Notes under the pieces: model-generated
The model's database searches: none
Told to the model about the DNA's origin: nothing
Seen by the model: only the letters and a program-made list of their open reading frames with translations
From: Chloroflexota bacterium
Lineage (GTDB): Bacteria > Chloroflexota > Limnocylindria > Limnocylindrales > CSP1-4
Assembly: GCA_003141955.1 (NCBI GenBank)
Contig: PLOC01000115.1
Coordinates: 1,864-65,863, forward strand
Length of the DNA: 64,000 bases
Direction of reading: 5' to 3'
Shown here: positions 11,782 to 35,052 of the stretch, one piece after another
How the letters are laid out: the number at the start of each line of letters is the position of its first letter
Position numbering within the stretch: the first letter of the stretch is position 1
Program-made: the position numbers and the translations under genes

Positions 11782-14118
11782 ATGACCGTCCGCCTTCAAA
11801 TGAAGCTCGGCCTCGTGGCCGAGTCGCAAAGACCGCCCGACTCGCCAGATACGGTCCTGGTCGTAGAGCCCAGCATCGGGTCGACGACCCGGACCAAGGG
11901 CAACCTCTACCTGGTCGTAACGGGCGAGGGCGGAGGTGAGCTTCGTTCTGCGACGAACATGGTCGCCGAGCGCGTCCGGCACGAGTACTACTACGACGAA
12001 TCGGCCGGCATCACCGTCTGCCTCAAGAAGGCCATCAAGGCGGCGAACCGCGAGCTGCGCGTCACCGAGCGACTGGTCTCCAGGACTGGGGAGGGCGGCC
12101 CGATCGGCATCGCCCTGGCCGTGGTTCGGAGCAACGAGCTGTACGTTGCGACCGTTGGACCGGCCGAGGCCTACCTCGTTCGCGAGGCCAGGCTGCTGAC
12201 TCTGCCTGAGCCAGATCCGGCGAGCGGGCTGCCGTGCGAAGACGGCGCCGAGCCCGTGGTCTGGCACGGCGACCTCCTCGCCGGCGACAGCGTCATCCTC
12301 ATCTCTCCCAACGCCACCCGCCGGATCGGCCTCGCGCCGATCCAGGACGCCGTGATCCAACTCCACCCTCAGGTCGCGATCGACCAGATCCACCGCCAGC
12401 TGGCCGGCGGCGGTCTCGGCGTGTCCGGCGGCGACGGCATGATCGCCCTCGAGGCGGACGAGGTGTCGGTCACGCAGAAGAGCCAGCCGCTGAAGGCGGT
12501 CTGGCCGAGCGACTCGCTGGCCGGGGTGCCGGATCACTCGCCGATCCCGATGGCCGACGCAGTCATCGAGAGCGTATCGACGGTCCAGCACACGGCCAAG
12601 CAGGTCCAGCGCACGGCCGACGGCATGCTCCGCCACAGCGTCTACGGCCTCTTCGACCGGATGCCGCGGCGGCCCGTCCAGCGCGTCCGGGTAACCCCCA
12701 TCGCCGTCCAGCGGGAGCGCCAGCGCCGCGTCGCGAGCGCCATCGTGGGCTTGTTGCTCGTCCTGACGGTCGTGGGCGCCTCGCTGTGGTACCTGGCCGG
12801 CACTCGTCAGAACCTGAACATCGACCGGCAGGGCCGCGCCCAGGCCGCCTATCTGCAGGCCGAGAGCGACGAGATCGCAGTCCTGGGGAACGGCCGCGAC
12901 CTCGTGACAAGCGATCCCGCGACCGCAAAGACGTACCTGGAGGATGCGTACAAGAACCTGCAGATCGCGAGCGACAACGGTTACACCAGCGCTGACCTGG
13001 ACGTCCTCAGCAGCGAGGTCGTCGGCGGACTCAACCACCTGTTCGACGTGAACGTCATCACTCCGCAGGTCGTTCTCTCGTTCGGGAGCGACGATCTGAC
13101 GGGGCTCGTGCTTGGTCCGGACGGCGGGGCGTACGTCATCGACCAGACCGACCAATCCGTCTATCGGGTCGATCTGGTCACGCGTGCCAAGGTTCAGATC
13201 GCGGTCAAGGGAGAGCAGCCGGCGGCCGTGGTGGTCACAAACGCAGCCGTGGGCTCGCCCCGTTTGCTGACGACCGGTGGCCAGGACGTGCTGATCCTCG
13301 ACAACACCAACAACCTGTGGCGCTGGCGGCCCGCGGCCGGGGCGGCGACCGGGCAGGGAACGCTGGCTCAGGTCCTCGTCCAGGACTCCGGAACATGGGG
13401 CTCCAACGTCCGGGCGATCGGGACGTTCCTGACCAGCTACGACCTGGACGAGTACTCGCTGTACGTCGTGGTTCCGTCGGCCGGGCAGGTTCTGAAGTAC
13501 CCGGAGTCGAGCGACGGCAGCGGCTACTACGCCCAGTCCAAGGCGAACTACCTGAGCGGCCAGAACCTTAGTGTGTCCCAGGTGGACGACATGTACATCG
13601 ATGGCAGCCTCTACCTGCTCGACGACGGAGTGGTCAGGCGGTTCGACTCCGGCCAGGAGATCCGAGGCTGGACAGCGGACCTGCCCGGCGACACGGTCAT
13701 GCGGCCCTCGGCGCCGTTCTACACACGGATTTCCGCCGACAACCCCATCGCCGACCAGGGCAACCTCTACGCCTACGACGGCGTTGGCCGGCGGGTCGTC
13801 TCGTTCACGAAGACCAACGGCCAGTACGTGCAGGAATTCGTCCTTCCGAACAACTCGCCGTATTTCTCCGCCCTGCAGGGGATGTTTGTTCGGACCGGTC
13901 CGAACGGTTCGAACCCGACTCTCTTCTGGATCGAGAGTGGCAATCTCATGAGCGCGCCGCTCGGGACCGGGCCGGCGGCCAGCCCCTCGCCGAGCGTCAG
14001 CCCCACATCGTCGTCGAGCGTCAAGCCGACGCCGACGCCCAAGCCGACGCCGACGCCCAAGCCGACGCCGACGCCCAAGCCGACGCCGACGCCCAAGCCG
14101 ACGCCCAAGCCGACCTGA
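11782..14118 (+). CDS. Membrane protein: N-terminal PP2C-like (possibly degenerate) cytoplasmic domain, one TM helix, a large extracytoplasmic beta-rich domain and a PT-repeat tail
   Basis: 778-aa ORF with coherent coding composition. PP2C-like blocks (NLYLVVTGEGGG, IALAVVRSNELYVATVGPAEAYL, GDSVILISPN). TM helix VASAIVGLLLVLTVVGASLWYLAG. The function call is tentative. Confidence 0.7.
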   Translation: MTVRLQMKLGLVAESQRPPDSPDTVLVVEPSIGSTTRTKGNLYLVVTGEGGGELRSATNMVAERVRHEYYYDESAGITVCLKKAIKAANRELRVTERLVSRTGEGGPIGIALAVVRSNELYVATVGPAEAYLVREARLLTLPEPDPASGLPCEDGAEPVVWHGDLLAGDSVILISPNATRRIGLAPIQDAVIQLHPQVAIDQIHRQLAGGGLGVSGGDGMIALEADEVSVTQKSQPLKAVWPSDSLAGVPDHSPIPMADAVIESVSTVQHTAKQVQRTADGMLRHSVYGLFDRMPRRPVQRVRVTPIAVQRERQRRVASAIVGLLLVLTVVGASLWYLAGTRQNLNIDRQGRAQAAYLQAESDEIAVLGNGRDLVTSDPATAKTYLEDAYKNLQIASDNGYTSADLDVLSSEVVGGLNHLFDVNVITPQVVLSFGSDDLTGLVLGPDGGAYVIDQTDQSVYRVDLVTRAKVQIAVKGEQPAAVVVTNAAVGSPRLLTTGGQDVLILDNTNNLWRWRPAAGAATGQGTLAQVLVQDSGTWGSNVRAIGTFLTSYDLDEYSLYVVVPSAGQVLKYPESSDGSGYYAQSKANYLSGQNLSVSQVDDMYIDGSLYLLDDGVVRRFDSGQEIRGWTADLPGDTVMRPSAPFYTRISADNPIADQGNLYAYDGVGRRVVSFTKTNGQYVQEFVLPNNSPYFSALQGMFVRTGPNGSNPTLFWIESGNLMSAPLGTGPAASPSPSVSPTSSSSVKPTPTPKPTPTPKPTPTPKPTPTPKPTPKPT
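14023..14115 (+). repeat. 18-nt perfect tandem repeat (aagccgacgccgacgccc x4 plus partial copies) encoding (KPTPTP)n
   Basis: Copies at 14023, 14041, 14059 and 14077, then partial units up to the stop at 14116-14118. Confidence 0.95.
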
Positions 14119-14752: not shown

Positions 14753-15559
14753 CTAGCCGAGCATTGCCTCGCCGCGGCGCATGCCCTTCGAGCGGCCCAG
14801 CCACAGGCGGAGTCGCAGCGACCAGAAGTCGCGCACCGCCCGGAAGACCACGCTGGGCTTCGCGCCCGTTGGCGAGCCGGCCGTCCGCGGGTAGTGCGGC
14901 ACGCCGACCTCGGCGATGCGGCGGCCTTCGAAGCGCAGCTTGATCAGCAGCTCGGCGGTGAAGAAGGCGCCGCCCGAGGACACCCTGATCGGCTCGAGGG
15001 CCTCGCGCTTGAAGAGCTTGCAGGCGCAGTCCATGTCGTGGACGCGGACACCGAAGAAGATTCGGTTCGAGAGTCGATAGACGCGGGCATACCAGCGCCG
15101 GATCGGGGGATCGGCGCGCTTCAGGCGGAAGCCCACGACGACGTCCGGGGAGTCGGGCGCGGCGATCCGCTCCGTCAGGCGGCCGACGTCGATCACCCTG
15201 AACTGTCGGTCGCCGTCGACGAAGGCGATCAGGTCGTATTGCGCGGCTCGGAAGCCGGATCGGAGCGCCGCCCCGTAGCCCAGGTTGGTGGGGTGGTGGA
15301 CGACGCGGAAGACGTCCGGATGGCGCTTCGCCAGGTCGTCGGCGATGGCCGGAGTCCGGTCCTTCGAGCCGTCATCGATCGCGATCACCTCGAACTTCTG
15401 CGCCAGCGAGGGCAGTGTCGCCAGCGCCTCGTCTGCCAGCGCCTCGAGGTTCGCCTCCTCGTTGTGGGCAGGGAAGAAGAACGACAGCTCGGCGACCCGG
15501 TTGCCGGGCTCCCCAGCAGACGCCCCTGGGTTGTCCGTTCGATCAGCTTCGCGCATTGG
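14753..15559 (-). CDS. GT2 glycosyltransferase, DPM1/GtrB/Ppm1-like (polyprenyl-phosphate sugar synthase type)
   Basis: FFFPAHNEEANL...VIAIDDGSKDRT...NLGYGAALRSGF...FVDGDRQF (the DxD-type GT-A signature). The ATG at 15559 lies 2 nt after the upstream stop. Confidence 0.85.
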   Translation of the reverse strand, partial: PMREADRTDNPGASAGEPGNRVAELSFFFPAHNEEANLEALADEALATLPSLAQKFEVIAIDDGSKDRTPAIADDLAKRHPDVFRVVHHPTNLGYGAALRSGFRAAQYDLIAFVDGDRQFRVIDVGRLTERIAAPDSPDVVVGFRLKRADPPIRRWYARVYRLSNRIFFGVRVHDMDCACKLFKREALEPIRVSSGGAFFTAELLIKLRFEGRRIAEVGVPHYPRTAGSPTGAKPSVVFRAVRDFWSLRLRLWLGRSKGMRRGEAMLG

Positions 15560-15561
15560 CC

Positions 15562-17382
15562 TCACTTTCGGGCAGTGACTTTGTTGAGAACGTACGGTTG
15601 GCACGGATCTATGACGTAGCGGGCGCATAGGGCCGGAATGCCGTCGCCCGTGACCGGATCGCCGGCATCAGTCCGAATCGTGTAGACGGGCCTCTTGCCT
15701 AGGTACTTGTCGAACACGTCGGTGACCTGCTCGAAGGTGACGCCGTTATCGACCCGGTTGCTATCGTCCACGATCAGGACGTCCGGCCGCAAGCCCTCGA
15801 CCCGCTGGCCGTACCAGAGAGTCGTGGATGCCGACCACCAGCTCACGATGACGGCGTTTTCGGCCACGCCGCCCTGGTCCGGGGGAGCCAGGACGCTATG
15901 CATCCAGGTCGCATTCTCCGTCATGTCGGACTCGCTGACGGCGCCCGGTCCCGATCCGGCCAGCGCCTGACGCGCGGGCACGACAGACACGCTGGCAACC
16001 ACCAGGACAACGGCCGCGACGATCTCGGCGATCAGGAGCGCGCGACGATTCCAGGCCTCGCCGTCAGGGGAGAGGGCGGAGCGAGGGACGTCGGCCGAGG
16101 GCTCAAGTGTGGCCGTTGCCGGCGCAGCAAGGCGGGACCTGAGTCTCTTCTGGCCGCTCGCCACCAGCCACATCCCAAGCTGGAGAGCGTCCGCCAGCCC
16201 AAACCCTACGTAGAGGAAGGCTACGAAGAGCGGCACGAGGAAGTACCGGTCGAGCTCAGCATTGGCGTACGAGGCGGCGAAGTCGGCGGTCACCGCCGCG
16301 GAAATAACGCTCAACAGGACGAAACGCGGCCGCCGAACCAGGCTGGTGCCCAGGCCGATGACGGCCAGGTAGCCCAGCGCCCCGAGCCAACCCGCGAGCA
16401 GGACCAGCACGGCGGCGTACTTGTCCGAAAGGTTGCCCAGCGGGTCGATGAGGCTGCCGCCGAACTGCTGAGCCAGGACGACATATTGGAAGCCGGCCCA
16501 GGTGTCCGGGTTCCCGTACACCTGCGACGCCCCCATCGCCGCACGGATGGGCAACTCCAGGAACAGGATGACGATCGTCGCCGCCAGCACGGCGGCGCAG
16601 CCCAGGATCAGCCGCCACTGCAGCACGATGCGCGGCGCCACGGCCAGGACGAAGAGGGCGATCGCCGGCGGCAGCAGCCACGCCAGGCCGTGGTTGGCGA
16701 AGGCCACCCCGTAGACGAAGGCAGCGGCCACGAGCCAGCGGTCGGCTCTGCGGCGTCTCTCTTGGCCGTGGCCCGTCCGCCACCGCTCCCACACGAGCAA
16801 GAGGAGGAAGAGCAAGGCCACCAGCGCGAGGTGGAGCATGTGGTAGTCGGCGTGGGTGGCGATCTGCCAGAGGAGCGGCGTGGACGTGACGCCGTAGCCA
16901 TCCGGGAACCCGGCCTGCGCCGGCGACAGAGTGGGCATGATCAGGAACAGCAGCCCAGAGGCCAGGGCGACCCAGCGCATGTTCGTCAGCATCTGGATGA
17001 TGGCCACCACGGCCGCCACCGCCCCTGCCGCCAGGATCGCGTTGAGCAGGTTCATTCGGTAGGCCGGGTCGCCGAACGGCAGCAGGTGGGAAGCAATGAA
17101 TCCGAGGATCACGTAGGCCGGATAGCCCGTGGGGTGACCGGTGCCGAGCACCGGCGCGACGGTCTGGAACTCGGCGGTATCCCAGGAGAGGACGCCGGGC
17201 GCCAGCGTGGGAATAACGAGCCAGAGGGTCGCCACGGCCGCGACGAGCGGCGCGAAGGCTGCCGCCGCCAGATCGCGATTCAGGCCGGCGCGCGCAAGGC
17301 GACGCCCGATCGCTTCGGTTCGGCGTGAAGGCGTGGTCGCCTCAGGCGAGCCACCGGTCCGCGGCAGATCGTCACCAGCCAA
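15562..17382 (-). CDS. DUF2723/TMEM260-like GT-C membrane glycosyltransferase
   Basis: Polytopic protein with N-terminal motif SWDTAEFQTVAPVLGTGHPTGYPAY, typical of DUF2723. The TTG start overlaps the upstream stop by 11 nt. Confidence 0.8.
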   Translation of the reverse strand: MAGDDLPRTGGSPEATTPSRRTEAIGRRLARAGLNRDLAAAAFAPLVAAVATLWLVIPTLAPGVLSWDTAEFQTVAPVLGTGHPTGYPAYVILGFIASHLLPFGDPAYRMNLLNAILAAGAVAAVVAIIQMLTNMRWVALASGLLFLIMPTLSPAQAGFPDGYGVTSTPLLWQIATHADYHMLHLALVALLFLLLLVWERWRTGHGQERRRRADRWLVAAAFVYGVAFANHGLAWLLPPAIALFVLAVAPRIVLQWRLILGCAAVLAATIVILFLELPIRAAMGASQVYGNPDTWAGFQYVVLAQQFGGSLIDPLGNLSDKYAAVLVLLAGWLGALGYLAVIGLGTSLVRRPRFVLLSVISAAVTADFAASYANAELDRYFLVPLFVAFLYVGFGLADALQLGMWLVASGQKRLRSRLAAPATATLEPSADVPRSALSPDGEAWNRRALLIAEIVAAVVLVVASVSVVPARQALAGSGPGAVSESDMTENATWMHSVLAPPDQGGVAENAVIVSWWSASTTLWYGQRVEGLRPDVLIVDDSNRVDNGVTFEQVTDVFDKYLGKRPVYTIRTDAGDPVTGDGIPALCARYVIDPCQPYVLNKVTARK

Positions 17383-19225
17383 GCATCACTCCCCAGACGG
17401 CGCCCCACAGGTTGATTGCGATCGAAGCGGCCACGAACGGCATCAGCACCCACCAGTAGCGGCCGAGGCGGTTCGCACCGAGCGCGACAAGAACGATAGC
17501 GAACGGAGCGAAGTCGTTGCTGAAGCGGTAGCCGAACTGCACCCAGCCCTGGCTGAAGTGCATGAGGTTGAAGAAGGCAATCGCCACGACGGCGATGGCG
17601 GCGCCCACGGTCACGCGGTCGAGCCTGCGCCAGAGGGCCGGGATGAAGGCCAGCGGGGCGAGCAGATAGGCCGGGCTGCTCAGGATGACGCTGTTGCCGA
17701 CCGGGTTCGGGATCGCAATCGGGCAGTTGACGTCGAAAATGCCTCTGGCCTGCCCCAGCTGGCAAAGCTGATCGGAACGGTACGGCAGCGTCTCCGGGCT
17801 GAAGATGGGCGTGTTGAACAGCATGATCATCAGGTTCTGCGGCACGTAGCGCAGGTCCTCGATCGACCAATCCGCGTGGTAGTTGAGGAACGGGTACGCG
17901 ACGATCTCCTGCTGGTACAGGTAGTCGTACACGGGGTTGAAGAGGTGACCCGTTTCCGCGTACGTGTAGACGAGCAGCGCGACGAGCGGGACCGCCGCTC
18001 CGGCGCCGGCCAGCAGCCCGCGACGCAGCCAGCTGCTGCTGCCGCCCACCAGGAGCAGGAACGGGAAGCCGAAGACGATCGTCAGACGCGCCGTGCAGGC
18101 GAGGCCGAAGAGAAGCCCGGCGGCCACCTGGCGCGTCTCCGGCCGGGCCATCGCATCCCAGAAGGCGGTCACCGCGCGATCGATCGACTGGGGTCGAACG
18201 CGGGCCATGACCACCAGCCCGACGACCAGCACCAGGACCACGGCGTCCACGAGTGCCAGCGCCTCCGGGTCCTGGGCCCCGAGTACCAGGGCCGCGGGCA
18301 CGCCGCCGACGATGACGACGACCGCGACGAGCGGCACCAGAACGCCGCGCTGGCCGGACACGGCGAGGGCCAGGATGGCGGCCCCGACCGCCAGGAGCAC
18401 GCCCAGGCCGGCGACCGTGGCCGCTGACGTGCCGGCTTCCGCCAGCTTGAAGAGCAGCTCGCCGAGCACACCAAGGACGACGACCGTCACCGCCGAGCGC
18501 CACCAGCCGGGCCACGCCAGACGCCGGGCCGCGGCGATCTCATTTGCGAGGGGCCGCGGCTCCGCGGCCTCCCGATCGGCGGAGAGCGCGAAAGCAATCG
18601 CCGCCAGCAGGCAGCCGACGGCGACTATGTGGGCCCAGAACCAGGTGCTTCCTATGGCGGCCGCGTACCAGAGGACCGTGCCCAGGCCCAGGAACAAGGT
18701 GGTCAGCTGGCGCACCTCCTGTCGGATCGGCAGGTAGCCCAGCATCCAGTAGGCAATCCCAACATCCAGCGCGGCGAAGATCGTGGCCAGCAGCTGCTCG
18801 TTGGTGAACAGATGCCAGATGGCGACGAACGGCAGCAGGACCAGCGCCGGGAGCGGCGGGAACGGAAGGTCGCCGCGGTTGGTGTCGCTGCCGCTGGCGT
18901 CGAGGATCGGCTGGAAGTCCTGATACCAGGAGTCGCCCGGCGAGGTCGCCGACGGCGCGACGTGGGTCGCGATCGAGGTCTGGCCGTCGAGCCACGCCTG
19001 TGCCTGCCAGACGAAGTGGATGTACGGGTTCTGGCGGTTCGGGTTCGTGAAGATGAACACGACCAGGCACAGGACGACGAGGGAGATGCCCCAGACGAAG
19101 GGCGCCAGGCGCACGTTCTCCTGCTGGGCGCCGGTGGCGCCGGCAGACAGATCATCCGCCGGCCCGGCAGCGGGGCTGGCCGGTGCGCCGTCCCCAGGCG
19201 TGGCCTGGGTTATACTCCGCTCCAC
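17372..19225 (-). CDS. Polytopic GT-C-fold membrane glycosyltransferase (ArnT/PMT_2-like)
   Basis: More than 12 predicted TM helices. First-loop motif (DLPFPPLPALVLLPF). First gene of the three-gene minus-strand operon. GTG start at 19225; an alternative GTG at 19114 lies just before TM1. Confidence 0.7.
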   Translation of the reverse strand: MERSITQATPGDGAPASPAAGPADDLSAGATGAQQENVRLAPFVWGISLVVLCLVVFIFTNPNRQNPYIHFVWQAQAWLDGQTSIATHVAPSATSPGDSWYQDFQPILDASGSDTNRGDLPFPPLPALVLLPFVAIWHLFTNEQLLATIFAALDVGIAYWMLGYLPIRQEVRQLTTLFLGLGTVLWYAAAIGSTWFWAHIVAVGCLLAAIAFALSADREAAEPRPLANEIAAARRLAWPGWWRSAVTVVVLGVLGELLFKLAEAGTSAATVAGLGVLLAVGAAILALAVSGQRGVLVPLVAVVVIVGGVPAALVLGAQDPEALALVDAVVLVLVVGLVVMARVRPQSIDRAVTAFWDAMARPETRQVAAGLLFGLACTARLTIVFGFPFLLLVGGSSSWLRRGLLAGAGAAVPLVALLVYTYAETGHLFNPVYDYLYQQEIVAYPFLNYHADWSIEDLRYVPQNLMIMLFNTPIFSPETLPYRSDQLCQLGQARGIFDVNCPIAIPNPVGNSVILSSPAYLLAPLAFIPALWRRLDRVTVGAAIAVVAIAFFNLMHFSQGWVQFGYRFSNDFAPFAIVLVALGANRLGRYWWVLMPFVAASIAINLWGAVWGVMLGW

Positions 19226-22200
19226 CTCAGCGCTCGTCCAGGAGGCCGTTTCGGTTGGCAGGCCCGAGCACGCGAGAGGCCAGCCCGCGGGGGAACGCGG
19301 CAGCGGGAACGAACGGCGTCGAAACCTTTGTTCCCGCCATCGTCGTCCTTCTCCTCCTGGGTTTGGCCCTCCGACTCATCATCGCATACGTTCTGCTTCC
19401 GGGGTCGGGCTTCCCCACCGACCTCGCTTCGTTCCAGGGATGGAGCAGCCAGCTAGTGGCGCAGGGCCCCGTCGGGTTCTACGACAAGGCCGGCTTCCTG
19501 GACTATCCCCCCGTCTACCTGCTCTTCCTGTGGGTTCTGGGCCTGATCGTCTCGCCGTTCGGTGGCGTTGGTGAGTCGATCAAGCTGATCCCGATCTTCA
19601 CGGACCTGGCCCTGGCCTTGGTCGTCTTCGTCATGGCGCACGAGCTGGGTGCGTCGCGGTGGCGGGCCGTGGGCGCGGCCGCGATCGTCCTGTTCAACCC
19701 CATCACCTGGTTCAACAGCGCGATCTGGGGCCAGGCGGACGTGGTCGGCTCCCTGTTCATGCTTCTCGGCCTGCGGGAGCTCCTGCGGGATCGCCGCGAG
19801 CTCGCCGCGGCCTTCGCAGTCGTAGCCGCGCTGACCAAGATCCAGCTCGGCATCCTCGGCGTCCTCGTCGGCTTCGTCATCCTCCGGCGGTCGCTGGCGC
19901 CGCGCGAGGGCCGGCCCGATCCAGAGCGCGTCCTGACGTCCATCGCGTCGGGGTTGGCCGCGGGCGCCCTTGTCTGCCTGCCATTCACGGGCCTCGATTT
20001 CGTGGGCCTGGCCGGGCGCCTGGCCACGCCCCAAGGACTTCTGACGCTGCCCGCGGGGTTGATCGCCGGCCTGGGCGTCTACCTGCTGGTCCGGCGGTCC
20101 GACCTCGTTTCGGCCGCGTATCGCGACCTCGCCGCCGCGTCAGCCGGCGCGGCCACCGTCGTCGGCTTCGCCGCGATGGCTTTGGGCTCGATCGCCAGCC
20201 ACATCATCAACACGTTCGGCGAGTACCCGTACCTGACTCTCAACGCCTACAACCCCTGGGCGCTGGTCGGCACCGGGACCGGCGGCGCCATGGACCAGAC
20301 CCTGGGCTGGATCCACGATGTCCTGGTCTACGACAACGGCGCCGCCCAACCGTACTTCAGCGTCGGGCCGTTCTCGACCCATGTCGCGATCGCCATGGCG
20401 GTCACCGTACTCGTGCTCGTCGCGGTCGCCGCCGTCGCCTGGACGCGCGCCAGGGCGACGGATCCGGGGGAGGTGTCGGTGCCGCCAGATGTGGACGCCG
20501 CGGCGGCGCCCGCAGCCAACCAGCTCGAGGCGAAGCCGCAGGCGGCGGCCGAATCCCGCAAGCCCGCCTTCTCGCTGCCGTCCGAGCTGCGCGCGCTCGC
20601 GGTCGGGTGCCTGGTCGCGGCGGGCGCGATCGTCTTCCTCCTCGCCGGCCAGCCCATCGGCGGGCTTCCGGCCGCCGCCGTCGGCGACGGGTTCCTGGTG
20701 GCCATCCTGGTCGGGGTGAGCGTCTGGGCGGCCTGGCGCGACGACCGACTCTCGATCGTGGTCGCCCTCGCGATCCTCGCCATTGCCTTCTTCGTCGTCC
20801 CGACCCGGGCGCACGAGCGCTACCTGTTCCCGTTCTTCGCGGTGGGCGCGATCCTGCTGGCCATGTCGTGGCGCTGGAGCGTCGCGTACGTCGTGCTGGC
20901 GGTGGTCAACGCCGCGAACCTGCTGGCCGTCCTGGTCGAATACCAGGGCATCCCCGGCGTGCAGGGGGCCAATGGGACGGCCGGCCCGATCTCGGGGCTG
21001 CTGGGCGACTGGGGCAACTTCCTCAAGACCGCCGAGTGGGCCGGGGTGATCTGGCCGATCGCGCTTTCGGGCGTCGTCACCGGGCTGGCCCTCCTGTGGG
21101 CCCTGACGCAGATGCGACCCCGAGCCGTCGCGGTGCTGGCATGGGAGACGGAAAGGGCGGGCCGCGAGCCCGAGCCCGAGCCCGAGCCCAGGGTCGAGCC
21201 CGAGGTCGAGCCGGCCGCCGCGGAGAGCCTCGCGGGCCGCGAGACGGCGGTATCGGACGCGACAGCCGGCTACGCGACAGCCGGCGACGCCTACGACGCC
21301 AACGAGGACTACGAGGACTACGAGGACTACGAGGACGACACGCCGTCCGGCGAGCAGCCGGAGTTCGTCCCCGGCTTCGTGATGTCGGCCTGGCGATGGC
21401 TCAACCGCCCGGGGACGATGCCGGATCGTTCTGCCTCTCTTGCGACCGAGCCCAAGGGGCGCTTCGACAAGCTCGACCTCTGGGTCGTCGTGGCCCTGGT
21501 CGTCGTGATTCTCTCGATGCGGGTCTATCGCCTCGACGAGCCGTCCCAGATGTACTTCGACGAGGTCTACCACGCCCGCTCCGCCACGGAGTTCCTGCAG
21601 GACTGGCAGTACGGCATCTACCACGGCATCTACGAGTGGACTCACCCGATGCTGGCCAAGTACGCCATTGCGGGCGGCCTGGTCGTTTTCGCGGACGACA
21701 AGGTCACGGCCACGAGCAGCCTCGACGTGCCGGTGAAGGATGCGGTCGTTCAGCCGCGGATCACGCCCGCCAGCGCGGACTCCGGGGCCAGCTCCACCGA
21801 CCCCCGGGACAACCCCAACGCGCGCCTCGGCGATCGTCTGTACGTCGCCACGGGCACAGATGTGATCGCGTACGATCTCCAGACGCGAGCTGTGGAGGCG
21901 ACGTACCAGATCCCCGGAGCGTCCGCGCTCTCCATCGCCGGCGACACGGGCGACCTCTTCGTCGGCACCTCGGACGGGCGTATCTGGCGCATCGACATGT
22001 TCCAGCTCGACGATGTGCGCCTCGGCGCGGCGAGCGAGCCCGCACCGCCGGTCGAGCTGTCGACCCAGACGGGATTCCCGATCGTCAAGATCTATGCTGA
22101 CTCGCCGCCGTTGATCCTGGCCGTCGACGCCACCGGAACGATCGTGTCGCTCGATGGCACGGGCAAGATCCTGGCCCGCGAAGTGGTGGATGGCGCCGCC

Positions 22201-25200
22201 GATTTCGCACCGCTGACTTCTACCGCGACGACGGTCGTGCGGACGGCGACCTCGAGCTCGACTGCGGAGCTGTCGGCGGAAGCCAACGCCATTGCCGCGG
22301 CGCTGAGCATGTCGCCGGATGACGTCGCGGCGGCGCTGAGCTCGCCGGCGACCTCGGGTCTCGACACAGTCCTGGACCTGGGCACGCTCTCGCAGGACGA
22401 GGTAACCGCACTCCAGCAACTCATCGACGCCGGCCAGCTGCCGGACATCGCCGTCAGGACGGACGACCCGCAGGTGGTGGTCGCGTACGCCAGCGGCGTC
22501 GGCATCATGGACGTGCGGGACCTCAACGTCACCTCGACGATCCCCTCGGCCACGGTCGTTTGGACCCCGACCGCCAGCTCGAGCCCGGCCCCGGACGTGT
22601 CCGCGGAAGCCCAGGCCATCGGCTCGGCGTTGGGCCAGGATCCATCGGCAATCGAGGCGGCGCTTAACGCGGTGGCCGGCTCGAACGTGGAACAGCCGAT
22701 CAACCTGGGGACGCTCACGCTGGACCAGATCGCCGCGATACAGCAGCTCGTCGACGCCGGCCAGCTGCCCGATGTCGCCATCCGCGACCACCCGGCGACC
22801 TCGATTGCGATCGATTCGGACCCCAGCCAGGAGTGGTACGTAGCGGAGGGCGCCTCGATCCTCCTGCTCGACGTGAGCGACTCGGGCACTGCCTCAATCA
22901 CCACTGCCCCCGATCAGCCGCTCGAGGTGATGCCCGGGCTGATCACCAAGATCGTCTTCGACGACTCGACCAAGGTCACCCAGGCCCTCGGCAAGACTCC
23001 CGACGGGTCGGGCTGGGCGGTCTATGCGATCGAAAGCAACGGCAACGCCGTCTTTTCGGACGCGACGCTGCCGTTCGATCCGGTCGCGATCGGGGCCGAC
23101 TCGACCCCGGACCTGCCCAACACCGACCGCCAGGATCTGCTCGCCGTCGCACCCAACGGCGACATGGCCCAGGTTGACATCGGCCAGTTCGCCTTCGCCT
23201 GGCGCATCGTCGGGGTCCTCTTCGGAGCGCTCATGGCCGTCTGCCTCTACCTGCTGGCGCGGCTCCTCTTCCGCCGGCGCTCGGTCGGACTGCTGGTGGC
23301 CCTCTTCTCGTGCGTGGACGGGATGTTATTCGCCCAGTCGCGCATCGCCATGAACGACACGTACGTAGGCGGCTTCCTGTTACTGGCCTACCTAATATTC
23401 GCGTACATCTGGCTCGGCGCGAAGAACAATCGCCGGTCGTGGCTCGGCTTCTGGGTCGGCATGCCGGTGCTGGGGGTGGTGCTGGGCCTGGCCCTCGCAT
23501 CCAAGTGGGTGGGGCTGTATGCGATCGCGAGCATCGGCATCCTGATCTTCATCCGATCGGCCCTGGGACGGCTCCTCACCATCCTGGGCCTGGTCGCCGG
23601 GACGGGAATCCTCGGCTGGAACGCAATCGCGGAGATGCAGACCCTGCCGGGAACGGGGAACGTCGCCGCTCTCCTGCTCATCCTCGGCGTGGGAGTTGCG
23701 GTCCTGGTGGGCGGCGTGTGGTACGCCATGGTGCGTGCGCGGACGACGCCCGACAAGGTGCTCTTCGTGGCAGTCGCGGCCCTGATCAGCCTGCCGTTCT
23801 TCTACTGGGCGATGAAGTTCTACCCGGCGCCCGACCAGAACGGCGGCCCGGACTACACGTTCTTCTTGATCATGCTCGTGGCGACTGCGATCGCCGCCGC
23901 CGTGAACGCCTACCACCCGATCGCATGGAGCAAGCAGGAGTTCTGGTTCGCGGTTTTCGCCCCGCTCGGGATCGGTCTGGTGGCCGGTCTCGGCCGGCTG
24001 ATAGTCGGCGTCCTCGACTTCGTGCCCTTGCAGGGCATCCTGGCCTATGTCGCCTCGCGGGGCATCGTGGGCGGCATCGCCGCCGTCCCCGCCATCGCCT
24101 TCGTCTTCTGGCTCGCCGGCAGGTTGGGATTCGGGCCGCTGGCCGTCCCGCCGAGTGCGGACGATCCGGCGTCCTTCGCCGAACCACCTGCGCCGGCGGC
24201 GGAGGGCTGGCTGCGCCTCGGCTCGGGCTTCGGCCTGCCGGCGGCGTGGATGATGGCCTGTCTCCTGGTCCTACCGCTCGCCGTCTACGTCGCCCTGTAC
24301 GTCCCGTGGGCGGTGCCCTGGCAACAGGAGACGACGGACAGCGGCCGGCTGCCCATCCTGATGTGCTGGAACACCGACGCGAACGGCGACTGCACGAACG
24401 CCTGGCCATCGGGCCACACCGGCCAGACGCTGATGCAGCTGACCGAGCAGATGTACGCCTACCACAACGATCTGCGCGCCCAGCATGCCGCCAGCTCGCC
24501 GTGGTGGGCCTGGCCCCTGGATCTGAAGCCCGTCTGGTTCGAGAGCGTCAGCTACGGCCCTGACCTTGGCTCATGGATCCACGACGGCGGCAACCCGGTG
24601 CTGTGGTGGCTGGCCATCCCGGGCATGGCCTTCGTGTGCTGGCAGGCCTTCAAACGGCACAGCCTGGGGCTGGCGCTGATAGCGGTTGCGTTCTTCTGGC
24701 AATGGCTCTCGTGGGCCCGCATCGACCGGGCTGCCTTCCAGTACCACTTCTACACGGCGCTGCCGTTCTTCCTGTTAGGCCTGGCGTATTTCCTGGCCGA
24801 ACTGTGGCACGGGCCGTCCCGCAGGACATGGCTGCTCGCTCGCGTCGCCGCCGTCGCGGCGGCGATGGTTCCGGCTGCCCTGTGGGTGGCGAAGTACCCG
24901 CTGTGCAGTCTCGCCCGCGTAGATACGACGAACTACTTCGGCAACACCGCCTGCGGTTCCGTGACGGGTACGCTCACGGTCGACACGCGCACCTTCCTGA
25001 TAGCGGTGGTCCTCGTAGGAGCATTGGCCGTGCTCGCCCTGACGCTGATCCGCCTCGAGCGGCACGCCTCGCAGGGAGGTGAAGAGGGTCAAGCCTGGAT
25101 CTTCCAGATGATCATCCCCGTTGCCGTGGCCGGAGGCCTGATCCTCTGGCTTGGCGCGAACGGTCCGCGCGACGTGATCTTCCAGGCGGCCCTGCCGCCC

Positions 25201-25680
25201 GACCTGCTGGCGCTCGTCATGGCGGTGTTGGGCGTGTGCCTGGGCATCCTCGCCATCACCGCCCGCGACTCGCGCCGCCTGGTGCTCGGGATCTGCATCT
25301 TCGCGGTGGTGGCGTTCGCCCTCCTGTATCCGGACCTGTCGGCCCTGCCCATGCCAAACCTGCTGCTCAACGTCTACGACGCCATCCTGCCGACCTGGTT
25401 CTACGGCTTCCAGTTCGCGGACAACCTGCAAGCGTCGCAGACCGTGTCGCTCATCAGCGGCGCCGCAATCGTGGTTTCGATCTCGGCCCTCTTCGTCGCC
25501 TTGCTGGCGGGTTACGCGGCCTGGGTGCAGCGCGTGGTCAACGGGTACCGCCGCCACCAGCGGCTGATCGCCGGTCCGGGCGAAGGTGATGGTGCCGGGA
25601 GCGATTCCGCAGACGAGCCGGCGGGCGGAGCGGCGGGCGAGGGCGGAGCGTCAGACCGGCCGGCGAGCTCCGGAGGCTGA
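19183..25680 (+). CDS. Giant (up to 2165 aa) double GT-C glycosyltransferase: N-terminal DUF2029/Gpi18-like module, acidic linker, then a PMT (GT39)-like module with a large loop insertion
   Basis: Module 1: DLASFQGWSSQLVAQGPVGFYDKAGFLDYPPVYL. Module 2: MYFDEVYHARSATEF (the DE motif of PMT loop 1), LFAQSRIAMNDTYVG, and a PMT C-terminal region (YAYHNDLRAQHAASSPWWAWPLDLKPVWF). Start uncertain: GTG at 19183 overlaps the divergent gene, whereas in-frame TTG at 19255 sits 9 nt downstream of GGAGG. Confidence 0.85.
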   Translation: MRRPQAWPGLYSAPPQRSSRRPFRLAGPSTREASPRGNAAAGTNGVETFVPAIVVLLLLGLALRLIIAYVLLPGSGFPTDLASFQGWSSQLVAQGPVGFYDKAGFLDYPPVYLLFLWVLGLIVSPFGGVGESIKLIPIFTDLALALVVFVMAHELGASRWRAVGAAAIVLFNPITWFNSAIWGQADVVGSLFMLLGLRELLRDRRELAAAFAVVAALTKIQLGILGVLVGFVILRRSLAPREGRPDPERVLTSIASGLAAGALVCLPFTGLDFVGLAGRLATPQGLLTLPAGLIAGLGVYLLVRRSDLVSAAYRDLAAASAGAATVVGFAAMALGSIASHIINTFGEYPYLTLNAYNPWALVGTGTGGAMDQTLGWIHDVLVYDNGAAQPYFSVGPFSTHVAIAMAVTVLVLVAVAAVAWTRARATDPGEVSVPPDVDAAAAPAANQLEAKPQAAAESRKPAFSLPSELRALAVGCLVAAGAIVFLLAGQPIGGLPAAAVGDGFLVAILVGVSVWAAWRDDRLSIVVALAILAIAFFVVPTRAHERYLFPFFAVGAILLAMSWRWSVAYVVLAVVNAANLLAVLVEYQGIPGVQGANGTAGPISGLLGDWGNFLKTAEWAGVIWPIALSGVVTGLALLWALTQMRPRAVAVLAWETERAGREPEPEPEPRVEPEVEPAAAESLAGRETAVSDATAGYATAGDAYDANEDYEDYEDYEDDTPSGEQPEFVPGFVMSAWRWLNRPGTMPDRSASLATEPKGRFDKLDLWVVVALVVVILSMRVYRLDEPSQMYFDEVYHARSATEFLQDWQYGIYHGIYEWTHPMLAKYAIAGGLVVFADDKVTATSSLDVPVKDAVVQPRITPASADSGASSTDPRDNPNARLGDRLYVATGTDVIAYDLQTRAVEATYQIPGASALSIAGDTGDLFVGTSDGRIWRIDMFQLDDVRLGAASEPAPPVELSTQTGFPIVKIYADSPPLILAVDATGTIVSLDGTGKILAREVVDGAADFAPLTSTATTVVRTATSSSTAELSAEANAIAAALSMSPDDVAAALSSPATSGLDTVLDLGTLSQDEVTALQQLIDAGQLPDIAVRTDDPQVVVAYASGVGIMDVRDLNVTSTIPSATVVWTPTASSSPAPDVSAEAQAIGSALGQDPSAIEAALNAVAGSNVEQPINLGTLTLDQIAAIQQLVDAGQLPDVAIRDHPATSIAIDSDPSQEWYVAEGASILLLDVSDSGTASITTAPDQPLEVMPGLITKIVFDDSTKVTQALGKTPDGSGWAVYAIESNGNAVFSDATLPFDPVAIGADSTPDLPNTDRQDLLAVAPNGDMAQVDIGQFAFAWRIVGVLFGALMAVCLYLLARLLFRRRSVGLLVALFSCVDGMLFAQSRIAMNDTYVGGFLLLAYLIFAYIWLGAKNNRRSWLGFWVGMPVLGVVLGLALASKWVGLYAIASIGILIFIRSALGRLLTILGLVAGTGILGWNAIAEMQTLPGTGNVAALLLILGVGVAVLVGGVWYAMVRARTTPDKVLFVAVAALISLPFFYWAMKFYPAPDQNGGPDYTFFLIMLVATAIAAAVNAYHPIAWSKQEFWFAVFAPLGIGLVAGLGRLIVGVLDFVPLQGILAYVASRGIVGGIAAVPAIAFVFWLAGRLGFGPLAVPPSADDPASFAEPPAPAAEGWLRLGSGFGLPAAWMMACLLVLPLAVYVALYVPWAVPWQQETTDSGRLPILMCWNTDANGDCTNAWPSGHTGQTLMQLTEQMYAYHNDLRAQHAASSPWWAWPLDLKPVWFESVSYGPDLGSWIHDGGNPVLWWLAIPGMAFVCWQAFKRHSLGLALIAVAFFWQWLSWARIDRAAFQYHFYTALPFFLLGLAYFLAELWHGPSRRTWLLARVAAVAAAMVPAALWVAKYPLCSLARVDTTNYFGNTACGSVTGTLTVDTRTFLIAVVLVGALAVLALTLIRLERHASQGGEEGQAWIFQMIIPVAVAGGLILWLGANGPRDVIFQAALPPDLLALVMAVLGVCLGILAITARDSRRLVLGICIFAVVAFALLYPDLSALPMPNLLLNVYDAILPTWFYGFQFADNLQASQTVSLISGAAIVVSISALFVALLAGYAAWVQRVVNGYRRHQRLIAGPGEGDGAGSDSADEPAGGAAGEGGASDRPASSGG
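21304..21336 (+). repeat. 9-nt tandem repeat (gaggactac x3 plus gaggac) encoding EDYEDYEDYED in the inter-module linker
   Basis: Read directly. Preceded by a gagccc repeat (EPEPEPEP) at ~21167-21190. Confidence 0.9.
22270..22815 (+). repeat. Internal duplication (period 327 nt, 109 codons) inside the PMT-loop insertion
   Basis: LSAEANAIAAALSMSPDDVAAAL...LGTLSQDEVTALQQLIDAGQLPDIAV aligns with VSAEAQAIGSALGQDPSAIEAAL...LGTLTLDQIAAIQQLVDAGQLPDVAI. Copies start at 22270 and 22597. Confidence 0.8.
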
Positions 25681-25709: not shown

Positions 25710-26894
25710 TCAGGCCTCGGGGGGTCCTCCGCGCGGCGGAAGCGGGATCTCGGCCGCGAAGCCGGGTGGCAGCTGGCCCTGGGCGGCGAGGCGGCGGATC
25801 ACGAAGCCGTAGTACTCTTCGACCTTGGCCGTGACCCGCTCCCAGCTGAACTGCTCGGCCCGGGCCTGGCCACTCGCCCCAAGGCGGGCCCGCAGCGCCG
25901 GATCCGTGAGCAGTTCGGTGATTCCGGCGGCCAGCGCCTTGGCGTCGCGCGGCGGCACGAGGATTGCCTGGCGACCGCGCTGGACCACGCCCTTATAGCC
26001 GTGGATGTCGCTGCACACGATCGGGGCGCCGGCGGCCATCGCCTCGAGGAGGACGATCCCGAACGACTCACGGCCCGTGGCCGGCGAGACGAAAACGTCC
26101 GCCGTTTTGAACAGCTGCGCCTTTTCGGCGTCGCTCACCCGGCCCAGGAATTCCACGCTCTGGAGGCCGCGGGTCATGACATAGCGCCGCGCCTCACGCT
26201 CCTGCGGCCCCGATCCGACGACGAGCAGGCGCGCCTCCAGGCCGCTCTTGCGGATCAGCCGAAACGCCTTGAGCAGGTGCGGCAGGCCCTTGCGGTCTTC
26301 CAGGCGGCCGACGAACAGCACGTTCGGCGTCCCGTCCTGCCAGCGGGCAACGGGTACGGCGCGCTGGAAGCGACCCGTGTCCACGCCGTTGGGGATGACC
26401 TTGTAGTCGCCCGGGAAGAAGCGATCGACGAAGTGGCGGGCCGCGGCGCTGACCGCGATGCGGCCGTCCAGCCTTGCCGCGTAGCCTTTCAGCGTCTTGC
26501 TGCCGAGTTCCATCGCCGGCGAGAACCCGGCGTAGGCGTGGAAGGTGGCTATGTTGACGCTGGTCGACTGGCGCAGCACGACCAGCGAGAGGAACGGCAC
26601 GAACGGCTCGTGGAAATGGAGCAGGTCGAAGCGCTCCTGCTCCAGCACGCGCTTCACCTGGGAGACGTAGCGCGGCGAAACCGTGATCGTGCCCACCGAG
26701 CCGTTGCTCGGCATGCTGAAGCCCTTGCCGATGCGGATGACGTCGCCTTCGGAGGAGCGCTGCAGGCCGTGGCTGCTGGTGATGATCCGGACGTCGTGGC
26801 CGCGCAGGCGGAGGTTCTCGTAGAGGAAGCGGACGTGCTCGTTGACTCCGCCGGGGATCGGGTAGACGTAGGGAGTCACGAGCCCGATCTTCAT
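25710..26894 (-). CDS. pimA: GT4 glycosyltransferase, PimA-like (phosphatidylinositol mannosyltransferase type)
   Basis: MKIGLVTPYVYPIPGGVNEHV..., the C-terminal EX7E region (ESFGIVLLEAMAAGAPIV), and operon context with pgsA and an acyltransferase. The ATG overlaps the upstream stop (ATGA). The symbol is given by analogy only. Confidence 0.8.
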   Translation of the reverse strand: MKIGLVTPYVYPIPGGVNEHVRFLYENLRLRGHDVRIITSSHGLQRSSEGDVIRIGKGFSMPSNGSVGTITVSPRYVSQVKRVLEQERFDLLHFHEPFVPFLSLVVLRQSTSVNIATFHAYAGFSPAMELGSKTLKGYAARLDGRIAVSAAARHFVDRFFPGDYKVIPNGVDTGRFQRAVPVARWQDGTPNVLFVGRLEDRKGLPHLLKAFRLIRKSGLEARLLVVGSGPQEREARRYVMTRGLQSVEFLGRVSDAEKAQLFKTADVFVSPATGRESFGIVLLEAMAAGAPIVCSDIHGYKGVVQRGRQAILVPPRDAKALAAGITELLTDPALRARLGASGQARAEQFSWERVTAKVEEYYGFVIRRLAAQGQLPPGFAAEIPLPPRGGPPEA

Positions 26895-30284: not shown

Positions 30285-30915
30285 TGCGAAGCTGCGTATG
30301 GACGTGCCAGGTTCGTTGGATCGCGGTGATGCTGGCCGTGACGGCGATGATGCCGAGGCCGAGCGCCAGCCAGAGCTGGCCTCGGGCGCCCGCGGCGACG
30401 CCGCCGTCCAGGCCGGCCGCGACGAGGCCGATGGTCAGGAGGACAAGCCGCTCGGCGCGTGGCGCGATGCCCACCTCGCCGTGGAGCTTGAGGCTCTCCG
30501 CCTTGGCCCGGGTGTAGCTGACCTGGAAGCTGCAGACGGCCGCGGCGGCGGCCAGGACCGCCCCCGCGACGAAGCCGGCGGCCGAAGCCCCGGCGACGAT
30601 CCCGATGTAGACGGCCCCTTCGCCCCAGCGATCCAGGGTCGAATCGAGGAAGGCTCCGAAACGAGTCACGCGGTTCTGAGCGCGGGCGAGTCCGCCGTCC
30701 AGCATGTCGAACGAGCCGCCGAGGATGACCAGGGCCGCGGCCGGGATCCACAGCTGGGCTGCGGCTGTCGCGGCGGCCACGACCGAGATAAGGAAGCCGA
30801 TGACGGTCAGGGCGTTCGGCGTGAGGCCTACCCTGCCGGCGCCGAGGGCGATGGGCGTGATCGCGCCGCGAACGCGGGCCCGCGTCTTCTGCGAGACGAA
30901 CGACTGGTCGCCCAC
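30262..30915 (-). CDS. pgsA: CDP-alcohol phosphatidyltransferase (PgsA1/PIP-synthase-like)
   Basis: DMLDGGLARAQNRVTRFGAFLDSTLDR matches D-G-x2-A-R-x8-G-x3-D-x3-D. Six TM helices. GTG start 3 nt after the arsR stop. Confidence 0.85.
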   Translation of the reverse strand: MGDQSFVSQKTRARVRGAITPIALGAGRVGLTPNALTVIGFLISVVAAATAAAQLWIPAAALVILGGSFDMLDGGLARAQNRVTRFGAFLDSTLDRWGEGAVYIGIVAGASAAGFVAGAVLAAAAAVCSFQVSYTRAKAESLKLHGEVGIAPRAERLVLLTIGLVAAGLDGGVAAGARGQLWLALGLGIIAVTASITAIQRTWHVHTQLRNEEQRAQ

Positions 30916-34894: not shown

Positions 34895-35052
34895 TGGCCG
34901 GCATCCTAGCAGGCGAATCGCCGGTCCGCCTCGGGTGACACCCTGAGAGGCGGCGCCAGGAACGCGGCCGCAACGCGTCTTCGGCGCCACTCCGCCGCTT
35001 GTCCTGGCATCGCCGGTCGCCAAGAAAGCCGATTCCTGGTAACCTCCGGTGC

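Follow-up and report, generated by a model that had tools for sequence, protein, structure and literature searches.

A stretch of 64,000 nucleotides (hereafter, the window) from contig PLOC01000115.1 of the Chloroflexota assembly GCA_003141955.1, which belongs to the class Limnocylindria, was analyzed with a focus on a cluster of glycosyltransferase (GT) genes, in which a soluble GT2, a TMEM260-like GT-C, and a membrane protein designated ORF3 are encoded next to a giant protein consisting of a GT87-like GT-C module (module A) and a protein O-mannosyltransferase (PMT) module (module B) that carries a β-propeller. We propose with moderate confidence, by analogy with characterized systems, that this cluster would specify a conserved origin-proximal system for extracytoplasmic glycosylation that depends on polyprenyl-phosphate-linked sugar, in which the PMT module would initiate glycosylation on proteins and the GT87-like module would extend the glycan. 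An earlier note on this DNA, hereafter called the original prediction, had suggested a dedicated envelope glycosylation system that yields O-mannosyl proteins and/or a lipoglycan; the present analysis supports such a system, with mannose itself being an assumption. The original prediction had not recognized the propeller within the PMT module, the identity of the host as Limnocylindria, the class-wide conservation of the arrangement, or the occurrence of the ORF3/fusion pair in other bacteria. The features of the cluster, with transmembrane (TM) helices and amino acids (aa) numbered in the respective proteins, are as follows.

19183..25680, plus strand: giant gene for a 2,165-aa protein with a GT87-like GT-C, an acidic linker, and a PMT with a propeller (one uninterrupted open reading frame, ORF)
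19315..21117, plus strand: module A, polytopic GT87-like GT-C, aa ~45-645 (PF09594, invariant residues)
21118..21462, plus strand: acidic linker (EPEPEP..., DYEDYEDYEDD), aa 646-760 (poorly conserved)
21469..21663, plus strand: PMT TM1 (aa 763-781), loop-1 YFDEVYH (D793-E794), and THPMLAKY, aa 763-827 (invariant residues)
21703..23178, plus strand: seven-bladed β-propeller in PMT extracytoplasmic loop 1, aa ~841-1332 (AlphaFold2 (AF2) model, Foldseek, alignment to Pmt4)
23188..25530, plus strand: PMT core from TM2 (aa 1336-~1900), followed by four to five extra C-terminal TM helices (PF02366)
14753..15628, minus strand: soluble GT2 of the polyprenyl-phosphate-sugar synthase type (PF00535, solved relatives, motifs)
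15562..17382, minus strand: TMEM260-like (DUF2723) GT-C of 606 aa (PF11028, PDB 9rql)
17372..19225, minus strand: ORF3, a 617-aa polytopic, GT-C-like membrane protein (weak fold matches and transitive matches)

The giant protein joins a GT87-like module to a PMT module

The architecture of the giant protein was conserved in 120 of 120 homologues among the matches listed. Mis-assembly or read-through of two genes was considered and excluded, because more than 100 full-length homologues have an equal architecture. The assignment of a DUF2029/Gpi18-like module and a PMT (GT39) module to this gene in the original prediction was confirmed by Pfam (PF09594, 26.1 bits; PF02366, 44.9 bits), and a sequence search of the whole protein against the PDB gave no match. 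In the giant gene of one metagenome-assembled genome (MAG; L012, 10001-11950), an in-frame stop was present in module A, and the product (P0079) was called as a protein of 1,498 aa; this stop represents either a pseudogene or a sequencing error.

For the PMT module, PF02366 scored 44.9-47.1 bits at aa 1337-1458 (cutoff, 22.7). PMT_4TMC scored 27-29 bits at aa 1749-1896 in the window protein, which is under the cutoff of 32.4, 32.6 bits in a stand-alone paralogue, and 78.6 bits in a fusion protein from the candidate phyla radiation (CPR), and most homologues have a precomputed match. The stretch F792-D793-E794-V-Y-H797 was invariant in sets of 36 and 46 homologues and aligned to FDEVHF of yeast Pmt4 (in VFDEVHFGKF). 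Also invariant was D1379 in the second extracytoplasmic loop (EL2), which aligned to the Asp of AID in the TM2-EL2 block of Pmt4, and R1849-A-A-F1852 was nearly invariant, in a segment that lies outside the displayed alignment to the solved PMT. Mutagenesis of MtPMT indicated that D74 in loop 1, D176 in loop 2, and R441-x2-Y444 in loop 5 are essential (PMC12331936), and the counterparts of these residues in the giant protein are D793/E794, D1379, and, putatively, R1849-x2-F1852. When a profile of the 46 homologues was aligned to yeast Pmt4 (9e61), the two were collinear: the DE motif corresponded to residues 54-93 of Pmt4, the first helix after the propeller together with the D1379 loop to TM2-EL2 (140-253), and the start of the 4TMC region to 546-609. 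No Pfam match to a MIR domain was found in the giant protein. Bacterial PMTs are without this domain.

The β-propeller is inserted at the point between Pmt4 residues 93 and 140 and, since the alignment is collinear, it is located in extracytoplasmic loop 1, beside the catalytic Asp. The AF2 model of module B, spanning aa 750-1949, had a pLDDT of 78 and a pTM of 0.76. It contains a β-rich domain, for which Foldseek with this model retrieved G-β, the periplasmic protein YncE, and a bacterial WD40 protein with a probability of 1.0 and a target-normalized TM-score of up to 0.72. These propeller matches dominated the results, and the PMT fold is backed instead by Pfam and the profile alignment. The THPMLAKYAIAGGLVVF helix was considered as PMT TM2, which would make the propeller cytoplasmic, and was rejected, because it comprises 13 residues in the model and the Pmt4 alignment puts TM2 after the propeller. 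The propeller region holds one or two small helical subdomains, of which most homologues have a single copy; in the window, a 62-aa helical subdomain is duplicated in tandem (nt 22273-22458 and 22600-22785), with 32 of the 62 residues being identical. We also observed a second, stand-alone gene for a propeller-PMT of ~1,500 aa without module A in L021 (9437-13945) and likewise in L009, L018, L023, and L027; these paralogues are found in an unrelated context, which is next to serS in L021.

For module A, the PF09594 match was marginal (26.1 bits at aa 105-266; cutoff, 25). GT87 was matched by 21 of 28 orthologous module A sequences, with a best E of 7.6e-7, and the other orthologous modules matched PIG-U, Mannosyl_trans4, or Alg6_Alg8, all of which are families of the GT-C clan. 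The structure of PimE, a GT87 enzyme, has been described to resemble PIG-U (PMC12041525). Invariant in module A were D107-Y-P-P, K134, D141, W182/Q184/D186, and R542-x-H544-E-R-Y547. D107 is located at the start of the GT87 match and is a candidate counterpart of the catalytic Asp of PimE, which is D58 at the tip of the first periplasmic loop. A search of the PDB with the module A profile gave no GT-C match at E ≤ 10, PimE included. The acidic linker that follows module A appears to be cytoplasmic, because basic residues precede the next TM helix and the N-terminus of PMT is cytosolic (PMC12331936).

Three genes on the opposite strand: a putative donor synthase, a TMEM260-like enzyme, and ORF3

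The GT2 matched PF00535 with 102.6 bits (E = 2.9e-29; cutoff, 23.3), and its closest solved relatives in a PDB search were ArnC, the dolichyl-phosphate mannose synthase (DPMS) of P. furiosus, and GtrB, at E of about 1e-11. The DDGSxDxT and D138-G-D140 motifs were conserved to at least 95% in 60 orthologues. No TM helix was predicted in the GT2, the C-terminus of which is an amphipathic helix. Sub-threshold NCBIfam matches were ArnC, PgfS, PpgS, dolichyl-phosphate-hexose transferase, and AglJ, with PgaC/IcaA as the top match over a partial stretch only. The gene may start at ATG 15628, in which case it overlaps the upstream gene by 67 nt, or at ATG 15556, which leaves a 5-nt gap. Accordingly, the original prediction was right in placing a gene of the donor-synthase type at 14753, and wrong in starting it at 15559, where there is no start codon. 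By analogy, mannose is the likeliest sugar to be handled by this enzyme. No sugar-nucleotide or polyprenyl genes were found in the rest of the window, and the sole transporter near the cluster (genes from 11.7 to 33.3 kb) is of the major facilitator superfamily (MFS) type.

The TMEM260-like protein matched PF11028 with 89.2 bits (cutoff, 24.2) and the human TMEM260 structure (9rql_A) over aa 22-312 with E = 8.7e-11. The motif of the first outer loop, WDTAEFQ...GHPTGYP, which includes D68 and E71, was conserved across 62 TMEM260-like orthologues, and D68/E71 appear to match the catalytic residues of human TMEM260. No TPR family was matched at E ≤ 0.01 in the TMEM260-like protein, whereas human TMEM260 has a C-terminal TPR domain; a soluble domain of ~130 aa is located C-terminally to the TM region instead. 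The 11-nt overlap with the upstream gene, ORF3, was reported correctly in the original prediction.

ORF3 belongs to a family with 1,064 cluster representatives at E ≤ 1e-3, in which D102, PFPPLP (aa 120-125), and NLMHFSQGWVQFGYRFSNDFAPF (aa 552-574) are invariant. Neither a Pfam match for ORF3 nor a match in a sequence search against the PDB was obtained. The AF2 model had a pLDDT of 81 and a pTM of 0.85, and Foldseek with this model gave nothing at E ≤ 1e-3 in the PDB; the only high-probability matches were STT3A (0.95), Pmt2 (0.87), and Pmt4 (0.66), all with E > 0.01. Among 38 distant ORF3 relatives, two matched GT87, one PMT_2, and two TMEM260-like proteins. These sequence and model comparisons suggest that ORF3 may be GT-C-like and outside the known families. 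Of the four GT-C modules counted in the original prediction, therefore, three (TMEM260-like, GT87, and PMT) were recovered by hidden Markov models, and the fourth, ORF3, was assigned to no family and gave weak GT-C-type matches only. ORF3 was also considered as a paralogue of module A, and this was dropped as hhalign shows no relation between them. As separate observations, an ORF3-like domain is fused to a TMEM260-like domain in the metagenomic proteins P0280 (1298 aa) and P0277 (743 aa), and the divergent ORF3 and giant genes, when taken as their longest ORFs, share 43 nt at their 5' ends (19183-19225), with the called starts being 29 nt apart in L001.

The cluster is kept in order near the replication origin

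The window has a G+C content of ~70% and includes dnaA (7170..8567), dnaN (9042..10160), and recF (10176..11372), which places it at the replication origin. This agrees with what has been published for Limnocylindria, an uncultured class with genomes of about 2.4 Mb and 68.9% G+C (PMC10608941). The named homologues and the related GTDB genomes were nearly all 'Candidatus Limnocylindrales' or Chloroflexota MAGs, and a protein from a JGI metagenome (P0121) matched ORF3 with 100% identity. Lakes, soils, and peat harbor abundant Limnocylindria, of which no cultured representative is known to us. A contig with the full Limnocylindria-type cluster (L052, DATHRO010000032.1) is labelled Candidatus Deferrimicrobiaceae, and it is probably mis-binned.

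Synteny was evaluated in two contigs retrieved through an exact protein look-up, with identities of 82% and 39%, and in 77 loci of GTDB species representatives, a subset of the more than 571 relatives that were confirmed. The common order was dnaN, recF, (DciA), a 778-aa protein, a bifunctional nuclease (BFN), GT2, TMEM260-like, ORF3, the giant gene, PimA, PHP, two acyltransferases, phosphatidylinositol-phosphate (PIP) synthase, and the MFS transporter. The three genes upstream of the giant gene (GT2, TMEM260-like, and ORF3) were all present, with order and strand unchanged, in 52 of the 59 loci with enough upstream flank, and PimA and both acyltransferases were found in 43 of the 44 with enough downstream flank. 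Identity across the syntenic loci was only 35-86% for module A and 48-96% for dnaN. It had been envisaged that the genes could be scattered in relatives and their clustering coincidental; they were not scattered, and the agreement in order and strands at both flanks indicates that the clustering is not due to chance.

This synteny could also be taken to mean that unrelated glycosyltransferases are simply kept together by an origin region that rarely rearranges, in favor of which dnaN, recF, the bifunctional nuclease, and the MFS transporter are as syntenic as the cluster. We regard such a coincidental neighborhood as very improbable, because modules A and B are fused in every homologue and ORF3 and TMEM260-like domains in other proteins, the minus-strand genes overlap, the pair of ORF3 and the A-B fusion is found in a different phylum-level lineage in a different context (described below), and all five modules share a substrate type.

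Candidate acceptors encoded in the window

An acceptor for protein glycosylation may be encoded nearby.

11782..14118, plus strand: 778-aa bitopic protein with an extracytoplasmic domain and an S/P/T/K-rich C-terminal tail (one TM helix, aa 317-340)

No Pfam match was found for the 778-aa protein. Its gene was present in 58 of 59 loci, with recF/DciA on one side and the BFN gene on the other, and the tail was conserved in nearly all of the 58 orthologues. That it is an acceptor of glycosylation is speculative. Its ectodomain was also compared with the inserted propeller, and a relationship was rejected, as there was no similarity. Another candidate acceptor is a VanW-like/PG_binding_4 wall protein (1118..3421, minus strand), which has a Pro/Thr-rich tract. 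The Pro/Thr tracts that the original prediction had noted in three exported proteins were thus found in two, the VanW-like and the 778-aa proteins; the one at 35160-35290 falls in an unverified ORF of 97 aa. The end of the VanW-like protein looks like a sorting signal, with the Pro/Thr tract preceding a hydrophobic helix and then RRRRLLRK as the tail. A protein with an S/P/T-rich linker and weak similarity to sortases is encoded 30 kb away (33923-35059, minus strand; Pfam Sortase, 23 bits, under the cutoff).

A phosphatidylinositol mannoside-type operon adjoins the cluster

Downstream of the giant gene, the window carries an operon of the phosphatidylinositol mannoside (PIM) type, in which PI denotes phosphatidylinositol.

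25710..26894, minus strand: PimA-like GT4 of the PI α-mannosyltransferase type (PDB PimA 2gej/4n9w)
26891..27900, minus strand: PHP-family phosphoesterase (PHP_C, E = 2.3e-10; NF038032, 60 bits)
27901..29160, minus strand: first PatA/HtrB-type acyltransferase (PF03279, E = 2.7e-28; syntenic in 43 of 44 loci)
28971..30284, minus strand: second, PatA-like acyltransferase (PF03279, E = 5.7e-36; NF005919)
30262..30915, minus strand: PIP synthase, a CDP-alcohol phosphatidyltransferase (PF01066, E = 2.8e-16)

The PimA-like GT4 matched M. smegmatis PimA over its full length (E = 1e-60, 208 bits), the next match being PimB' with 86 bits. The operon has not one but two tandem PatA/HtrB-type acyltransferases; for the second, NF005919 (PIM acyltransferase) was the top match with 137 bits, under the cutoff, and PatA was the only PDB match (E = 5e-20). 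The PIP synthase scored 136 bits with NF045883 and 147 bits with NF040950, both under the cutoff, and is followed in operon order by an ArsR-type regulator. The presence of a neighboring PIM-type operon, as claimed originally, was thus borne out by PimA (E = 1e-60), PatA (E = 5e-20), and the PIP synthase. The PHP protein is a candidate PI-phosphate phosphatase, because PIP synthase yields PI-phosphate, and its gene is likewise located between the PimA-like GT4 and the acyltransferases in L001 (17772-18782) and L002 (16810-17616). In L002 (19747-20991), a distant relative, inositol-1-phosphate synthase is also encoded in the operon. No second GT4 resembling PimB' was found in the operon of the window, L001, or L002.

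This adjacency raises the possibility that the GT-C enzymes would extend PI-mannoside to a lipomannan-like, PI-anchored product, with the GT2 serving as a polyprenyl-phosphate-mannose (PPM) synthase, which may coexist with protein O-glycosylation. We consider such a lipoglycan to be a possible but rather unlikely main product. It would fit the direct adjacency and co-conservation of the operon (43 of 44 loci), the order of PIP synthase, acyltransferase, and PimA, which parallels the mycobacterial gene order pgsA1-patA-pimA, and the presence of four lipid-sugar transferases, which suggest a multi-sugar product. Furthermore, characterized GT87 enzymes (PimE and others) use acceptors of the PIM/lipomannan (LM) type (PMC12041525), and cultured Ktedonobacteria have PI as one of their major lipids and mannose among the sugars of the wall (PMC12453558). 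On the other hand, module B retains the protein O-mannosyltransferase residues, no PimB'-like GT4 is present in the cluster, and the cluster was found without downstream PIM-operon matches in L025 and L050, of which only L025 has a downstream flank of more than 6.5 kb. The adjacency may also reflect inheritance of the syntenic origin-proximal block as a whole, not function. Additionally, the homologous gene pair in CPR genomes, as described next, has no PIM genes within 8 kb and adjoins wall genes.

A compact form of the gene pair is present in CPR bacteria

When metagenomes were scanned with core forms of the ORF3 family of ~400 aa, low-GC loci were found in which one or two ORF3-like genes are located beside, and mostly divergent from, a gene for an ~800-aa protein. 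This protein matches the giant protein first in module A, then around the DE motif, and last in the 4TMC region. Loci of this kind in CPR/Microgenomates genomes include L119 (2344-7101), L160 (6855-10442), and L161 (5618-10364), with G+C contents of 33-39%. In the fusion protein of L119 (33% G+C), the C-terminal half scored 57 bits with PMT, 63 bits with PMT_2, and 79 bits with PMT_4TMC. This protein had 1,436 homologues at E ≤ 1e-10, of which the named ones were from Patescibacteria/CPR (Microgenomates, Woesebacteria) and annotated as 'glycosyltransferase family 39 protein', and several N-terminal halves of the CPR fusions matched GT87 or PIG-U. The CPR fusions are, therefore, similar to the giant protein in having a GT87/PIG-U-like N-terminal half, a C-terminal half with PMT and PMT_4TMC, and a divergent neighbor of the ORF3 family, but they are without the propeller and the long acidic linker and have fewer TM helices. 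Their loci also differ from those of Limnocylindria in that the GT2, the TMEM260-like gene, and the PIM operon are missing nearby: neither GT2 nor PIM genes were found within 8 kb of the pair on two long contigs, in which it is located beside LCP (LytR-CpsA-Psr) and FemAB genes. Since the divergent pair is also present in CPR/Microgenomates, comparison of these loci argues that the pair of the ORF3-family gene and the GT87-like-PMT fusion would be an older unit, and that Limnocylindria would have an expanded version, to which the TMEM260-like gene, the GT2, and the PIM operon have been added. The lack of an adjacent PIM operon in CPR tilts the balance to glycosylation of proteins or a wall polymer over a lipoglycan like LM or lipoarabinomannan.

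Decoration of a wall polymer, that is, glycosylation of a cell-wall glycopolymer or a peptidoglycan-linked polysaccharide instead of proteins or PI lipids, is an explanation that we judge to be improbable. The neighboring LCP ligase and FemAB of the CPR pair speak for it, as does the placement of ORF3 outside the known protein-glycosylating families. The combination of GT2 and GT-C would also follow the same logic as in the three-component systems of GT2 and GT-C represented by GtrB/GtrX, CsbB/YfhO, and PpgS/Rv3779, and PpgS and PgfS were among the NCBIfam matches of the GT2. However, two of the four modules are from families of which the characterized members act as protein O-mannosyltransferases (PMT and TMEM260), their catalytic residues are conserved, and no genes for wall-polymer synthesis (LCP, TagO-like, or ABC exporter) were found beside the cluster in the window.

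Discussion

Taken together, the results favor an extracytoplasmic glycosylation system in which the PMT module would act on proteins. In the mechanism that we envisage, the GT2 would take a sugar from its nucleotide-activated form and attach it to polyprenyl phosphate on the inner side of the membrane; the resulting lipid-linked sugar would be flipped and then used by the four GT-C modules on the outer side. Since the Asp-Glu pair, the Asp of the second loop, and a putative R-x2-F motif are retained, it is probable that the PMT module attaches the first sugar to Ser/Thr of exported proteins, and the loop-1 propeller would most likely select or hold the acceptor, as do the MIR domain or TPR repeats in eukaryotic O-mannosyltransferases. 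The fused GT87-like module would extend the glycan, as do the separate Pmt and PimE in mycobacteria: in M. tuberculosis, PimE, a GT87 enzyme, is among those that elongate the mannose added by PMT, and the GT87-like-PMT fusion would accordingly join consecutive steps of a known pathway (PMC12331936). ORF3 and the TMEM260-like enzyme may add more sugars or serve other acceptors, and the PimA/PatA/PIP-synthase operon may produce an acylated PI-mannoside at the inner face, which could be a second acceptor of the same donor. That the modules are functionally tied is suggested by the ORF3, TMEM260-like, and GT2 genes overlapping or nearly abutting, by the existence of ORF3-TMEM260-like fusions, and by the recurrence of the pair in CPR.

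Several points weigh against this interpretation. Module A is barely over the GT87 threshold and without a sequence match to the solved PimE, and the fold matches from which a GT-C status of ORF3 is suggested are non-significant. The GT2 falls far short of all the NCBIfam equivalog cutoffs and is about as distant from ArnC as from DPMS and GtrB, which are enzymes for 4-deoxy-4-formamido-L-arabinose (Ara4FN), mannose, and glucose, respectively. No flippase family of the GtrA/SMR type was found to be encoded between 11.7 and 33.3 kb. The whole block from dnaN to the MFS gene is syntenic, including such unrelated genes as recF and the bifunctional nuclease, and synteny alone is, therefore, no proof of cooperation between the GT-C cluster and the PIM operon. 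Linkers rich in S/T/P are common in high-GC bacteria and, to our knowledge, glycolipids are among the acceptors, if not the main ones, of all characterized GT87 enzymes. Finally, all the sequences compared were MAGs or metagenome contigs.

The underlying logic is already known from the mycobacterial PPM network and the three-component systems of GT2 and GT-C, and O-mannosylation in the eukaryotic endoplasmic reticulum (ER) uses the same families. The system resembles the mycobacterial PPM network in having a GT2 without TM helices, like the catalytic domain of Ppm1, a PMT that shares catalytic residues, a GT-C of the GT87 type, and PimA, PatA, and PIP synthase in an equal gene order. It differs in the Chloroflexota host and in forming one contiguous cluster, whereas the mycobacterial genes are scattered around the genome. 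It also differs in the GT87-like-PMT fusion, the loop-1 propeller, and the two further GT-Cs (TMEM260-like and ORF3), and its PIM operon has two acyltransferases, a PHP phosphoesterase, and no PimB' in the cluster. PimA aside, the proteins show low identity to their solved actinobacterial relatives. Compared with ER O-mannosylation (DPM1 with PMT/POMT, TMTC, and TMEM260), the cluster similarly combines a DPM1-type GT2 with GT-Cs of the PMT and TMEM260 families, and in both cases the GT-C core carries an additional domain on the luminal or extracytoplasmic side, presumably to recognize the acceptor; this is a propeller in loop 1 here, whereas eukaryotic PMTs have a MIR β-trefoil in loop 5 and TMTC and TMEM260 have TPRs at the C-terminus, and the carrier here would be polyprenyl instead of dolichyl phosphate. 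In GtrA/GtrB/GtrX, ArnC/ArnEF/ArnT, CsbB/GtcA/YfhO, and PgfS/PgfM, the GT2 is likewise encoded with the GT-C user(s) of its product, but the cluster has four GT-C modules instead of one and no recognizable flippase gene of the GtrA/SMR type, and its GT2 is without the C-terminal TM helices of GtrB and ArnC.

In the literature, we found no paper on the class-wide contiguous cluster, the GT87-like-PMT fusion, including its compact form in CPR, the loop-1 propeller, or the ORF3 family, no publication on the Limnocylindria envelope, and nothing relevant on PIMs or lipoglycans in Chloroflexota/Limnocylindria; the sole related fact was that PI is a polar lipid of cultured Ktedonobacteria (PMC12453558).

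This study widens the scope of GT-C enzymes by a natural fusion of an initiating (PMT) and an elongating (GT87-type) enzyme, a PMT with a β-propeller beside the catalytic loop, and a membrane family of more than 1,000 representatives that is not modeled by Pfam and is consistently paired with the fusion. As a more far-reaching and doubtful idea, Limnocylindria and CPR could share an ancestral O-glycosylation machine, in which the PMT-GT87 polypeptide would always go with ORF3, the propeller would select acceptors, the donor would be shared with the synthesis of a PI-mannolipid, and the fusion would be a rare genomic character by which CPR and Chloroflexota are linked. If the donor is indeed shared for a PI-anchored mannolipid or lipomannan, glycoconjugates of the PIM/LM type would not be an actinobacterial invention; if the main product is a lipoglycan, an actinobacterial PIM/LM pathway would be present in a Chloroflexota lineage. 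In either case, the occurrence of a PimA/PatA/PIP-synthase operon in a lineage other than Actinomycetota is relevant to how PIM/LM-type glycolipids arose, and the fusion common to CPR may serve as an evolutionary marker. For the organisms themselves, the cluster predicts a Limnocylindria surface with O-glycosylated proteins and/or PI-anchored mannolipids.

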